Virus record (IMG/VR): IMGVR_UViG_2537561992_000036 | Direction: 5' to 3' (one strand) | DNA from: a virus | Taxonomy: Duplodnaviria > Heunggongvirae > Uroviricota > Caudoviricetes | Length of the DNA stretch: 24,178 nt | Shown: positions 9,001-18,000 of the stretch, one piece after another | Layout: each line of letters begins with the position of its first letter | Numbering within the stretch: the stretch's first letter is position 1 | Program-made: the position numbers

Positions 9001-12000
9001 GCGTGGTCTTACGCTACAACAGTTAATTCATATGCTTATTATTTTAATTGCCTTGATAATAATCACCCCAGCATCAATTAAAGAGTGGGTAGATATAAGG
9101 AACCCCGAAATACTTCCAGATCACTGGATGTATTACGCAATGCTTTTGTGTATCAGTTATGTTCTGAACAGGGGGATGGAGTGAACCGCCCCGGAAATCC
9201 TGGAGACTAAACTCCCTGAGAAAGAGGTAAACAGGATGACTAAAAATACTCGTTTTTCCCCCGAAGTCCGTCAGCGGGCGATTCGTATGGTTCTGGAAAG
9301 TCAGGATGAATATGACTCACAGTGGGCGGCAATTTGTTCCATTGCCCCAAAGATTGGCTGTACGCCGGAGACTCTGCGTGTCTGGGTTCGCCAGCATGAG
9401 CGGGATACCGGGGGCGGTGATGGTGGGCTCACCAGTGCTGAACGTCAGCGTCTGAAAGAGCTGGAACGTGAAAATCGTGAACTGCGCCGCAGTAACGATA
9501 TCCTTCGCCAGGCTTCCGCTTATTTTGCGAAGGCGGAGTTCGACCGCCTCTGGAAAAAATGATGCCACTGCTGGATAAGCTGCGTGAGCAGTACGGGGTC
9601 GGACCGGTATGCAGCGAACTGCATATTGCCCCGTCAACGTATTACCATTGTCAGCAACAGCGACATCATCCGGATAAACGCAGTGCCCGTGCGCAGCACG
9701 ATGACTGGCTGAAGAAAGAGATACAGCGCGTATACGATGAAAATCACCAGGTATACGGTGTGCGTAAAGTCTGGCGTCAGTTGTTACGGGAAGGTATCAG
9801 AGTGGCCAGATGCACTGTGGCACGTCTCATGGCAGTTATGGGACTTGCCGGTGTTCTCCGGGGTAAAAAGGTCCGCACTACCGTCAGCCGGAAAGCCGTT
9901 GCCGCATGCGACCGCGTAAACCGTCAGTTCGTGGCAGAACGTCCAGACCAGTTGTGGGTGGCTGATTTTACCTGGGTAAGCACATGGCAGGGCTTCGTTT
10001 ATGTGGCGTTCATCATTGATGTGTTCGCCGGATACATCGTGGGATGGCAGGTCTCATCATCCATGGAAACAACATTCGTGCTGGATGCACTGGAGCAGGC
10101 GTTGTGGGCCCGTCGGCCGTCCGGCACAATCCATCACAGTGATAAAGGTTCTCAGTATGTATCGCTGGCCTACACGCAGCGGCTTAAGGAAGCCGGATTA
10201 CTGGCATCAACAGGGAGTACTGGCGACTCGTATGACAACGCGATGGCTGAGAGCATCAATGGTCTTTACAAAGCGGAGGTAATACACCGTAATAGCTGGA
10301 AAAACCGGACAGAAGTGGAACTGGCCACACTAGCGTGGGTGGACTGGTATAACAATCGACGATTGCTGGAAAGGCTGGGCCATATTCCTCCGGCAGAAGC
10401 AGAAAAAGCTTATTATGCTTCCATCGGAAATAATGATCTGGCAGCCTGAGTTCACAGATAAAATACTCTCCAGGAAACCCGGGGCGGTTCAGCGTGATGT
10501 TGATCGCGCAGAAACAGATTTACTTATCAACCTGTCAACGCTTACCCAGCGCGGTCTGGCAAAGATGATTGGCTGTCATGAATCGAAGATAAGCAGAACG
10601 GACTGGAGATTTATTGCTTCGGTCTTGTGTGCTTTCGGAATGGCATCAGACATCAGTCCGATTAGCAGAGCTTTTAAGATGCGCTTGATGGACTCACCAA
10701 TAAAAAACGCCCGGTGTGCAAGACCGAGCGTTCTGAACAAATCCAGATGGAATTCTGAGGGAATTACTGGATCAATCCACAGGAGTCATTATGACAAATA
10801 CAGCAAAAATACTCAACTTCGGCAGAGGTAACTTTGCCGAACAGGAGCGTAATGTGGCAGATCTCGATGATGGTTACGCCAGACTATCAAATATGCTGCT
10901 TGAGGCCTATTCAGGCGCAGATCTGACCAAGCGACAGTTTAAAGTGCTGCTTGCCATTCTGCGTAAAACCTATGGGTGGAATAACCAATGGACAGAATCA
11001 CCGATTCTCAACTTAGCGAGATTACAAAGTTACCTGTCAAACGGTGCAATGAAGCCAAGTTAGAACTCGTCAGAATGAATATTATCAAGCAGCAAGGCGG
11101 CATGTTTGGACCAAATAAAAACATCTCAGAATGGTGCATCCCTCAAAACGAGGGAGGTTCCCCTAAAATGAGGGAGATCCCTCAAAACGAGGGAAAATCC
11201 CCTAAAACGAGGGATAAAACATCCCTCAAATTAGGGGATTGCTATCCCTCAAAACAGGGGGACACAAAAGACACTATTACAAAAGAAAAAGAAAAGATTA
11301 TTCGTCCGAGAATTCTGGCGAATCCTCTGACCAGCCAGAAAACGATCTTTCTGTGGTTAAACCGGATGCTGCAATTCAGAGCGGCAGCAAGTGGGGAACA
11401 GCAGAAGACCTGACCGCCGCAGAGTGGATGTTTGACATGGTGAAGACCATCGCACCATCAGCCAGAAAACCGAATTTTGCAGGGTGGGCTAACGATATCC
11501 GCCTGATGCGTGAACGTGACGGACGTAACCACCGCGATATGTGTGTGCTTTTCCGCTGGGCCTGCCAGGACAACTTCTGGTCCGGTAACGTGCTGAGTCC
11601 GGCCAAACTCCGCGACAAGTGGACCCAGCTCGAAATCAACCGTAACAAGCAACAGGCAGCCGTGACAGCCAGCAAACCAAAACTCGACCTGACAAACACT
11701 GACTGGATTTACGGGGTGGATCTATGAAAAACATCGCCGCACAGATGGTTAACTTTGACCGTGAGCAGATGCGTCGGATCGCCAACAACATGCCGGGAAC
11801 AGTACGACGAAAAGCCGCAGGTACAACAGGTAGCGCAGATCATCAACGGTGTGTTCAGCCAGTTACTGGCAACTTTCCCGGCGAGCCTGGCTAACCGTGA
11901 CCAGAACGAACTGAACGAAATCCGCCGCCAGTGGGTTCTGGCTTTCCGGGAAAACGGGATCACCACAATGGAACAGGTTAACGCAGGAATGCGCGTAGCC

Positions 12001-15000: not shown

Positions 15001-18000
15001 GCATACCGGTCCGACCCCGTACTGCTCACGCAGCTTATCCAGCAGTGGCATCATTTTTTCCAGAGGCGGTCGAACTCCGCCTTCGCAAAATAAGCGGAAG
15101 CCTGGCGAAGGATATCGTTACTGCGGCGCAGTTCACGATTTTCACGTTCCAGCTCTTTCAGACGCTGACGTTCAGCACTGGTGAGCCCACCATCACCGCC
15201 CCCGGTATCCCGCTCATGCTGGCGAACCCAGACACGCAGAGTCTCCGGCGTACAGCCAATCTTTGGGGCAATGGAACAAATTGCCGCCCACTGTGAGTCA
15301 TATTCATCCTGACTTTCCAGAACCATACGAATCGCCCGCTGACGGACTTCGGGGGAAAAACGAGTATTTTTAGTCATCCTGTTTACCTCTTTCTCAGGGA
15401 GTTTAGTCTCCAGGATTTCCGGGGCGGTTCACACCACGCAGTTCGTCAGGCAAAGAGAAAGGCCAATATGACATACATGAAGGCGTATCAAAAAGCATGG
15501 AAAGAACACCGCGATCGATACCAACAAGACATGGAAAAGCTTGAATCAGAAAACATGGAATTAAGACGAAAGCTCGGTGAAGCAAAACGAGACATTGATG
15601 CTTACAAGCGACTTTTTAATGGTGAAAGCCATGCTTAGCCCATCCCAATCCCTTCAATACCAGAAAGAAAGCGTCGAGCGAGCTTTAACGTGCGCTAACT
15701 GCGGTCAGAAGCTGCATGTGCTGGAAGTTCACGTGTGTGAGTACTGCTGCGCAGAACTGATGAGCGATCCGAATAGCTCAATGTACGAGGAAGAAGACGA
15801 TGAATGAGTTAATAAATGGCAATGCCATCAAAATGACAAGCATTGAAATAGCTGAGTTGGTGGGTAAGCGTCATGACAATGTGAAACGTACCATCGAAAC
15901 GCTGGCTAAAAATGGTGTTATCCGGCTTCCTCAAATTGAGGTTTCCGAAAGAATCAATAACTTAGGGTTCAATGTTCAGTACGAGCATTACGTCTTCGAG
16001 GGCGAACAAGGTAAGCGAGACAGTATTGTCGTTGTTGCCCAGTTGTCGCCAGAGTTCACCGCTCGTCTTGTTGACCGTTGGCGAGAGCTTGAAGAAACTG
16101 CGGTTAATATCCCCAAAACGTTACCGGAAGCGTTGCGCCTTGCTGCTGATCTTGCTGAGCAGAAAATGCAACTGGAAAACCAGCTCGCAATTGCCGCACC
16201 TAAAGTTGAGTTTGCCGATCGCGTTGGCGAGGCCAGCGGAATTTTGATTGGAAACTTTGCAAAGGTTGTTGGTATTGGTCCAAACAAACTGTTTGCGTGG
16301 ATGCGCGATCACAAAATCCTTATTGCTTCAGGTTCCCGGCGCAATGTGCCAATGCAGGAATATATGGATCGCGGCTATTTCACAGTGAAAGAAACAGCGG
16401 TCAACACAAATCACGGAATACAGATATCGTTCACCACAAAAATCACCGGGCGTGGTCAACAGTGGCTGACCAGAAAGCTGCTCGATAACGGAATGCTGAA
16501 AGTAACAGGGGAGGCTGCTTAATGGCTAACCTACGCAAAGAATCTCGCGGCAGAGAATGCCAGGTACGTATTTACGGCATATGCAATGGCAATCCTGAAA
16601 CTACAGTTCTGGCACATTACCGGATGGCTGGAATTTGCGGAACGGGAATGAAGCCTGACGACCTGATCGGCGCATGGGCTTGTAGCGCGTGTCACGATGA
16701 AATCGACCGACGCACCCATAACCTCGACAACAAAGACGCCAGACTTTACCACCTCGAAGGCGTGATCAGGACGCAGGCGATACTGCTGAAGGAGGGGAAG
16801 ATTAAGTCATGAACGAATATCAGTTTGTGCTTCCATACCCGCCGTCGGTGAATACCTACTGGCGAAGACGGGGAAGCCAATACTACATCAGCGATAAAGG
16901 CCAGAAATACCGAAAAGACGTTCAGCAAATCATCCACCAACTCAAGTTAGATATTTTCACCAAATCACGACTCCGCATCAAAGTAATCGCAGACGTTCCA
17001 GACTCCCGCCGCCGCGACCTAGATAACATCCTGAAGGGTTTACTCGACTCCCTTATCCATGCCGGATTTGCGGAAGACGACGAGCAATTCGATGACATTC
17101 GCGTAATTCGTGGTGTGAAAGTACCAGGCGGACGGCTTGGAATAAAAATCACCGAACTGGAGAACGCATGAACGCCACAATTCAAACGATACCAGAGCTT
17201 CTTATCCAGACACGAGGCAATCAGACCGAAGTGGCGAGGATGCTTTCCTGCGCAAGAGGAACAGTGCTCAAGTACAACCGAGACAGCAAAGGCGAGCGTC
17301 ATGTAATAGTTAACGGCGTCCTGATGGTCAAACAGGGCAAGAGGGGAAGACGATGAGACTCGAAAGCGTAGCTAAATTTCATTCGCCAAAAAGCCCGATG
17401 ATGAGCGACTCACTACTGGCCACAGTTTATTGGTTTTCGTAACTGAGTCATTTTATTATTTTATTGCAACTTTTAATCTTTTATAGTGCGAAATAAATGG
17501 AGCTGGCATTCATTTCGCACTTTATGTTTTTGTTGGACTTATGTTATTTTGATTGAATTCAATTCAGTTAAAAAAAGAAGGTGATTGCTCCATTTATAAA
17601 TGAATAGTCATCCCCTGTCTTGAATTCTGATGTTACTTTATTAAATGCTAGTGTGAAGGCTACAGGTGCATACCCAATTGTTGCGCCAACTTGATATTCA
17701 TCAACAGTTTTGTTTAGCGATACTGTTGTTTGTTTCGTCTGTATTGTTTTTCCTTCGAGAGTATAGTTGCGATTGACATCTCGTCTTTCCATACCTGCAA
17801 AAATCTTGTATTTGAATCCGCTTGTATCGGACATATGCATTAAACCACGGGGAGCCAGCAGACCAAAGCCATTATCCGAATTGAAGGTTTTATCATTACC
17901 AATGGCAATGGTTGCGCCATATGCTACATATTGAAATAAGTTTCCAGTAACAGCAGAAACTTCAGGGTATAATCCAACATTAGCACCTAAAATATCCATA

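Follow-up and report, generated by a model that had tools for sequence, protein, structure and literature searches.

Two copies of the insertion sequence (IS) IS629, designated A and B, lie in opposite orientation in the early region of a defective lambda-like prophage, and genome comparison indicates that the 3630-bp block enclosed by them has inverted in nature. The region was analyzed in the virus record IMGVR_UViG_2537561992_000036, the whole 24,178-nucleotide stretch of which is referred to below as the window. Comparison with annotated relatives showed that the window opens in the chromosomal gene ybhC and continues with int and xis; the prophage occupies attLambda, the classical lambda attachment site, beside ybhC. 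The nearest relatives, with 99.9% identity, are O26:H11-type Escherichia coli genomes, and the source host is an O26:H11-type enterohaemorrhagic E. coli (EHEC). It is highly probable that copy B is a simple insertion, that copy A sits at a 3077-bp deletion, that the block was flipped by homologous recombination, that excision occurred repeatedly, and that the flip was neutral.

Relatives were sampled from 5426 complete E. coli genomes, and the two-IS arrangement was sought with positions 8600-16100 of the window as the query. The 35 matches that extended over 80% or more of the query were all located at one prophage locus. Both copies were present at these sites in 14 of the 5426 genomes, 11 of which had the orientation of the window and three (10159, 7_12_30A, and PV0838) the inverted one. 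In this trio, exactly the IS-to-IS block matched the opposite strand, and the annotated genes cII-O-P-ren-ninB-ninE were opposed to ninF...Q. The inverted junctions read sieB'..GGAG-IS-GTGGTT.. and ..GCGTGGTG-IS-GCGTGATG.. (primes denote truncated genes), so that the four flanks of the window are re-paired with no base gained or lost. An IS-free probe joining the reverse complement of the cII' end to the outer right flank, with one IS bridging the two, found this junction in exactly 3 of the 5426 genomes, which were the same trio. The first-pass annotation of the window had proposed the IS pair as a substrate for inversion, and these three isolates, with the block inverted and the junctions swapped to the base, bear this out. 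Such a flip of the cII'-O-P-ren-ninB-ninE block is the expected product of reciprocal homologous recombination, presumably of the RecA type, within the IS; each IS-flank junction stays intact and the partners are swapped. The longest unbroken identities between A and B are 565 and 579 bp, which is ample for RecA-type recombination.

The window itself is un-inverted, since the two halves of the nin open reading frame (ORF) interrupted by copy B are collinear across it. All enclosed genes from cII' to the 5' half of this ORF are on the plus strand, the same as ninF...Q downstream, and the canonical rightward gene order read in the first pass was thus retained.

The left flank of the arrangement helps to count the events. 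A sieB' flank is combined with the canonical orientation in the window, UTAK-23, SJ2D, and others, and with the inverted one in 10159 and 7_12_30A. A tolA' flank occurs with the canonical orientation in 08_4358 and with the inverted one in PV0838, and the tolA' endpoint is identical in both genomes. No tolA::IS629 precursor able to remake the tolA' deletion by recombination was found in any of the 5426 genomes. The four combinations of flank and orientation, together with the lack of such a precursor, imply at least two orientation changes, and the simplest reading of these structures would be one tolA' deletion and at least two inversion events. The inversion was probably selectively neutral, because the repressor, early promoters, and functional O had already gone and the prophage was already dead.

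The element is identified by its sequence as IS629 of the IS3 family. A repeat scan of the window revealed a single long inverted repeat with arms at 9177-10492 and 14121-15436, containing the two copies (Table 1). A 1310-bp repeat at 99.8% identity is far above chance. The first pass had described two IS629-like, 1310-bp IS3-family copies on opposite strands, differing by a few bases and about 3.6 kb apart; direct comparison reproduced the coordinates and gave 3 mismatches, at IS positions 566 (C/T), 572 (A/G), and 1152 (G/A), corresponding to 99.77% identity, and a spacer of 3630 bp. The "100%" arm identity reported by the repeat scan is a result of rounding. The 5 bp past the left inverted repeat (IRL) were considered as a shared flank and rejected, since tggag and tggtg match at 4 of 5 positions, as expected by chance. 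IS629 of phage BP-4795 (AJ556162, annotated with IS629 OrfA and OrfB) is 99.8% identical over 1310 bp. Both copies have imperfect terminal inverted repeats and the ends TGAACCGCCCCGG...CCGGGGCGGTTCA, beginning with 5'-TG and finishing with CA-3'; the 41-nt terminal arms are 76% complementary.

Both copies carry a predicted programmed -1 frameshift signal between orfA and orfB. The matches to the ALIL pseudoknot model RF01497 reached 121.5 bits, the gathering score of the model being 50 bits. At the frameshift site (9554-9562 and 15051-15059), an A6 run is followed by T and the orfA stop, all inside the ALIL match. A6G is a frameshift motif common in the IS3 family, from which IS629 differs here. 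IS629 is near-identical to IS1203v. IS629 is a 1.31-kb IS3-family member of the IS51 subgroup and the commonest IS in EHEC (PMC10758439, PMC9943667), where it is frequent in lambdoid prophages (PMC10758439). The length of 1310 bp, orfA with a helix-turn-helix domain and orfB with a DDE/rve domain, the ALIL structure, and the 3-bp target duplication are shared with the known IS629 of EHEC and Shigella. The element itself does not differ from them in any respect; the only peculiarities are the absence of the duplication at A, which has an adjacent deletion, and a two-base variant patch in B.

This patch consists of C566T and A572G, which are both synonymous and together represent the allele pair of the 07_3636-type IS629 variant. 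It suggests either a conversion patch shorter than ~340 bp or cross-talk in consensus polishing. The third difference, A1152G, is private to copy A and results in Thr259Ala in OrfB. The relatives examined each have the same sequence in A as in B; only in 7_12_30A does a single private base separate the two. The window and its best relative differ at 29 sites, homopolymer indels among them, and part of these differences may be consensus error.

Copy B is flanked by a 3-bp duplication (aacCAC-IS-CACcac). Removal of B with one CAC restores an intact 402-bp ORF, as present in many genomes, e.g., 07_3636, and the never-occupied site AAAAACCACCACGCAG was found in more than 60 O26, O111, and O103 genomes. 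The restored ORF and the CAC duplication therefore indicate that B is a simple insertion. Such insertions are the product of the circular copy-out-paste-in intermediate via which IS629 moves (bioRxiv 10.1101/2023.06.07.543989). At copy A (gatGAG-IS-GCGtga), there is no direct repeat. The first pass had noted a 3-bp flanking repeat at B and none at A, and the comparison of flanks, CAC-IS-CAC versus GAG-IS-GCG, agrees with this. Four IS629 insertions besides A have 3-bp duplications, namely CAC (B), CTT (07_3636), GGT (BP-4795), and TTC (Stx2_EH0505). Since these are all duplicated, the missing duplication of A is to be ascribed to a deletion rather than to the element.

The native early region is retained in strain 07_3636 and its kin, which served as the reference for this deletion. 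Alignment of the flanks to 07_3636 showed that copy A marks the loss of 3077 bp, beginning midway through sieB and ending at nucleotide 32 of cII, which explains why A is without a target duplication. The native cII context in 07_3636 (stretch L003) is ...atcaca followed by GCGTGATG. The sieB' ORF now stops at the first TGA of copy A; sieB is annotated in the RefSeq relatives as lacking the C-terminus, and the native continuation is present in 07_3636. The deleted 3077 bp encodes the N antiterminator (PF25694), two small ORFs, a Peptidase_S24 repressor of the cI/LexA type, and an ORF in the position of cro. In the 07_3636-type prophage, N, cI, cro, cII, and intact O are all kept. By this comparison, the prophage has lost its immunity and early control region, including the early promoters and the cII start.

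The most likely route to this structure would begin with a simple IS629 insertion into cII; a leftward deletion adjacent to the IS, such as the IS629 transposase makes together with the IS-excision enhancer (IEE), would come next. One-sided deletions that start from the exact IRL end of A and keep the IS do occur, as follows from 08_4358 and PV0838, in which the right flank of A is unchanged and the left flank lies 1.2 kb further, inside a tolA-like gene (window position 7952). Alternatively, A could have originated by recombination between two direct IS629 copies. IS629 was found neither at the GCG site in an intact cII nor at the GAG site in an intact sieB in the 5426 genomes, the former search giving only spurious two-piece O157 matches.

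The tolA-like ORF (7739-8599, minus strand) contains imperfect 24-37-nt repeats of two families and has an internal stop annotated in relatives. In 07_3636 and seven similar genomes, another IS629 variant, with 28-29 base differences and a CTT duplication, is inserted elsewhere in sieB (L003 3764-5073). It was considered as a precursor of copy A and rejected as an independent insertion.

Derived states of the locus record the loss of either copy. In genome 11368 and 10 others, sieB' is joined to cII' with no IS between them. The scar at site A, GGAG followed by TGTTGATC, lacks the native cII GCGTGA that is kept in the window and has a 2-nt TG microhomology in these 11 genomes. Because GCGTGA is missing from the scar, the 11 genomes derive from an A-bearing ancestor by a loss of 1316 bp (A and 6 bp). 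Six further genomes keep A and lack B, and their site B is in four states. In 02E060, 2015C-4944, and 2009C_3996, three CAC units are present, the IS having been removed exactly with both duplication copies kept. Two units, as in the native site, are found in 07_3986, which points to precise excision given the inferred tree. One unit, 3 bp below native, remains in 7_14_47A, and CCACTCAG, 3 bp below native with a substitution, is present in 8479. Site B is thus scarred (CAC x3, CAC x1, or CCACTCAG) in 5 of the 6 A-only genomes, and these sequences indicate that B was excised independently at least three times.

IEE promotes excision of IS629 and IS-adjacent deletions of a few nt to more than 40 kb, with microhomology joining (PMC9943667, PMC9397093, bioRxiv 10.1101/2023.06.07.543989), and iee is carried on SpLE1-like elements in O26:H11 (PMC9397093, PMC9943667). 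The IEE-dependent excision of IS629 in EHEC, along with the deletions next to the IS, was described by Kusumoto et al. 2011, as summarized in PMC9943667, PMC9397093, and bioRxiv 10.1101/2023.06.07.543989. The locus has the same products, namely exact IS removal, precise target restoration, loss of a few bases at 0-3-nt microhomologies, and kilobase deletions from an IS end with the IS kept. On the other hand, the natural products were deduced from genome comparison, and iee is not in the window. In its spectrum of products, the locus matches the known behavior of IS629 and IEE.

The order of events could be as follows. The ancestor would have had A, B, and an intact origin of replication (ori), and the window lineage would branch at this stage. 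A 67-bp ori deletion would follow, and the lineages would later diverge as A or B was excised, the tolA' deletion arose, and the block inverted. Since the 67-bp ori segment is kept in the window and gone in all 31 descendants, the window most probably represents the un-inverted, earliest-branching known state.

Several points weigh against this account. No intermediate for the origin of A was seen, and both the order of insertion and deletion and the RecA dependence of the inversion are inferred. The count of at least two inversions derives from one structural marker, the shared tolA' endpoint, and not from genome phylogeny; there were no informative single-nucleotide polymorphisms among the relatives in the inner and flanking segments, so haplotypes cannot separate the inversion events. 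The crossover is unmappable, as the IS copies of the inverted trio are identical or one base apart. Mapping it via the three A/B differences of the window was considered and rejected because the copies are identical in relatives, apart from the private base of 7_12_30A. The orientation in the three inverted records depends on the underlying reads and was compared here between assemblies, and neutrality is assumed from the state of the prophage.

The same difficulty with reads underlies the idea that the inverted database records result from assembly errors, the orientation having been chosen arbitrarily and the segment never flipping. Indeed, with IS copies identical or one base apart in the trio, the orientation can be settled only by reads that extend beyond 1.3 kb and the flanks. 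However, the three are closed chromosomes from at least two projects in two countries (CP0748xx/CP0749xx, USA; AP027188, Japan), eleven sister assemblies from the same projects are canonical, the junctions are base-perfect reciprocal products, and, by what is established about recombination, inverted repeats of 1.3 kb would be expected to invert the DNA between them. We therefore consider such errors unlikely. Even less probable is a common origin of B and the inverted form in one intramolecular replicative transposition that took A into the nin ORF (inversion-insertion), the window having become canonical by re-inversion. This is structurally indistinguishable and would put one CAC by the right inverted repeat of the first copy and the other by the IRL of the second, which is the pattern of the inverted isomers. 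Yet the copy-out-paste-in group of IS elements gives simple insertions (bioRxiv 10.1101/2023.06.07.543989), the canonical orientation is in the majority (11 of 14) and is found in the earliest-branching sequence, the window with its 67-bp ori segment, and the examined genomes with B and without A, e.g., 11368, are all canonical.

The recurrence of the inversion could also point to a selected invertible switch (phase variation) controlling the expression of prophage or neighboring genes, and a hybrid ORF running from copy A into cII' means that orientation could alter transcription. The probability of this is very low. No invertase gene, such as accompanies switches of the Hin/Gin/Cin/Pin or fimS type, is present among the ORFs in and around 9182-15431, which encode the IS629 transposase, cII', O, P, ren, ninB, ninE, and small nin ORFs; the integrase is the only recombinase gene found (Table 1). 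Short recombination sites of ~9-30 bp are missing, the arms being complete 1310-bp IS elements, and there are no further inverted repeats at the block boundaries. The genes inside are defective as it is, cII' being truncated and O frameshifted in every genome with the sieB-cII deletion, and this deletion has removed N, cI, cro, and the early promoters. Moreover, both IS copies are readily lost in relatives, which speaks against selective maintenance. An assembly duplication of one IS, a possibility that the first-pass annotation had itself raised and that the near-identity of the copies might suggest, has practically no likelihood, given that all four junctions are different (sieB, cII, and the two nin ORF halves with their duplication), that the copies differ at 3 bases, and that the same two sites are both occupied in 14 independent complete genomes, others having A only or B only.

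A composite transposon was also considered. As in Tn5 and Tn10, two inverted copies of one IS surround a few kb of passenger DNA; in contrast to them, the outer ends are both IRL and the copies arrived separately. The candidate was rejected, as the unit as a whole is not framed by one duplication (GAG precedes A and CAC follows B), B has its own CAC, and the arrangement occurs at one locus only.

Table 1. Features of the window in and around the inverted IS629 pair
Feature	Position	Strand	Evidence or state
Prophage integrase	1419-2489		only recombinase gene found
sieB (superinfection exclusion B), 5' part	8963-9181	+	Pfam SieB PF14163; RefSeq annotation of relatives
IS629 copy A	9182-10491	+	1310 bp
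orfA of copy A	9236-9562	+	Pfam HTH_Tnp_1, E 2.4e-12
ALIL pseudoknot, copy A	9517-9633	+	Rfam RF01497, 121.5 bits, E 4.6e-32
A6 slippery run of copy A	9554-9559	+	just 5' of the orfA stop
orfB of copy A	9559-10449	+	Pfam rve, E 6.6e-26; HTH_21
cII' (residues 11-99)	10492-10758	+	first 10 codons (32 nt) missing; Pfam Phage_CII; tblastn with intact cII of 07_3636
Gene O, replication	10791-11727	+	in three frames; private 1-nt deletions near 10982 and 11285
ori iterons in O	~11138-11243		repeat scan
Gene P, replication	11724-12426	+	frameshifted by a private extra G at 11795
ren, 81-aa ORF, ninB, ninE	12423-13921	+	intact; proteins 100% identical to relatives
nin ORF (133 aa), codons 1-66	13924-14121	+	interrupted by copy B; left CAC at 14119-14121
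IS629 copy B	14122-15431	-	1310 bp
orfB of copy B	14164-15054	-	
ALIL pseudoknot, copy B	14980-15096	-	Rfam RF01497, 121.5 bits
orfA of copy B	15051-15377	-	
nin ORF, 3' part, then ninF	15432-15638	+	right CAC at 15432-15434

The window retains 67 bp of the iterons (11176-11242) that are gone from all 31 genomes with the sieB-cII deletion, where this loss frameshifts O; apart from the window, only prophages of the less decayed 07_3636 type have the intact version. The cII' gene has a private 1-nt deletion near 10678. This is one of nine window-private changes located at 10678-12021, which comprise this frameshift, those of O (~10982 and ~11285) and P (11795), and five substitutions. Over the adjacent 2.1 kb (ren to ninE), the window does not differ from its relatives. 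None of the 5426 genomes carries the private cII'-O-P variants, and none exceeded 99.5% identity when a paralogous prophage that could have donated them by conversion was sought. Neutral decay or sequencing error may account for the window-private lesions, and so may the convergent silencing of a replication module no longer under repression. In a broader scenario, selection would have acted on the remaining replication module once the repressor and early promoters had been lost through the IS629-associated deletion, two lineages would have silenced it independently of each other, and the recurrent inversions would be a further tolerated or favored means of uncoupling O, P, and ori from transcription out of the IS. 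The lesions of the two lineages are distinct, two frameshifts in O and one in P in the window versus the 67-bp ori deletion in all other descendants. We regard this scenario as improbable; if true, the locus would be a natural record of the avoidance of "replicative killing" in a decaying prophage.

The hybrid ORF (10415-10831) starts 77 nt inside the right end of copy A and runs into truncated cII. The RefSeq annotation of its equivalent in relatives (WP_000638163.1) is misleading, since it names a complete "CII family transcriptional regulator".

The element was known before, as were the chemistry of its excision and inversion between inverted repeats, and the locus presents no new mechanism or kind of element; the inversion is an expected consequence of the known behavior of IS629. 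A literature search found no paper describing this small inversion. Known parallels are the large prophage-bounded inversions of E. coli O157:H7 (PMC7430833, PMC8743559), which likewise involve reciprocal exchange between inverted repeats, keep the junctions, and are polymorphic among close isolates. Unlike them, spanning 0.1-1.4 Mb around the terminus with prophage sequences as arms, the present inversion covers 3.6 kb within one prophage, has IS629 copies as arms, and cannot change replichore balance. The locus is of value mainly as a worked example, in which 6 kb shows every known class of IS629 change in EHEC, namely simple insertion, IS-adjacent kilobase deletion, excision with four outcomes, short gene conversion between IS variants, and recurrent inversion, with intermediate states kept in sequenced isolates. 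In practical terms, the unstable orientation makes the block unfit as a phylogenetic or typing marker, and short-read and hybrid assemblies can misorient it. The O26:H11 reference 11368 represents a derived state, with A excised, rather than the ancestral one.

Some other features of the window were also found. A gene for a lipid A deacylase of the lpxR family (17568-18527, minus strand) is located between a 72-bp remnant of an antiterminator gene (~17353-17424) and a complete Q (19001-19690), and this placement indicates a moron-like cargo gene in the late-regulation region. Ten differences from SJ2D are clustered within 70 bp at 21012-21080, just upstream of a frameshifted DUF6645 gene (21164-23028); the cluster resembles either a short patch of recombination or a site of hypervariability. 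The ORF pair at 21164-23028 was considered as an IS66-type element and rejected in favor of the frameshifted DUF6645 gene. In related prophages, copies of IS600 are present at several sites around kil/erf and the nin region (L002 336-2771, L004 513-1669, and L001 13063-14219, as well as E2865 and 98E11), and UTAK-23 has two IS600 copies. The early region of the prophage is a hot zone for insertions of the IS3 family.

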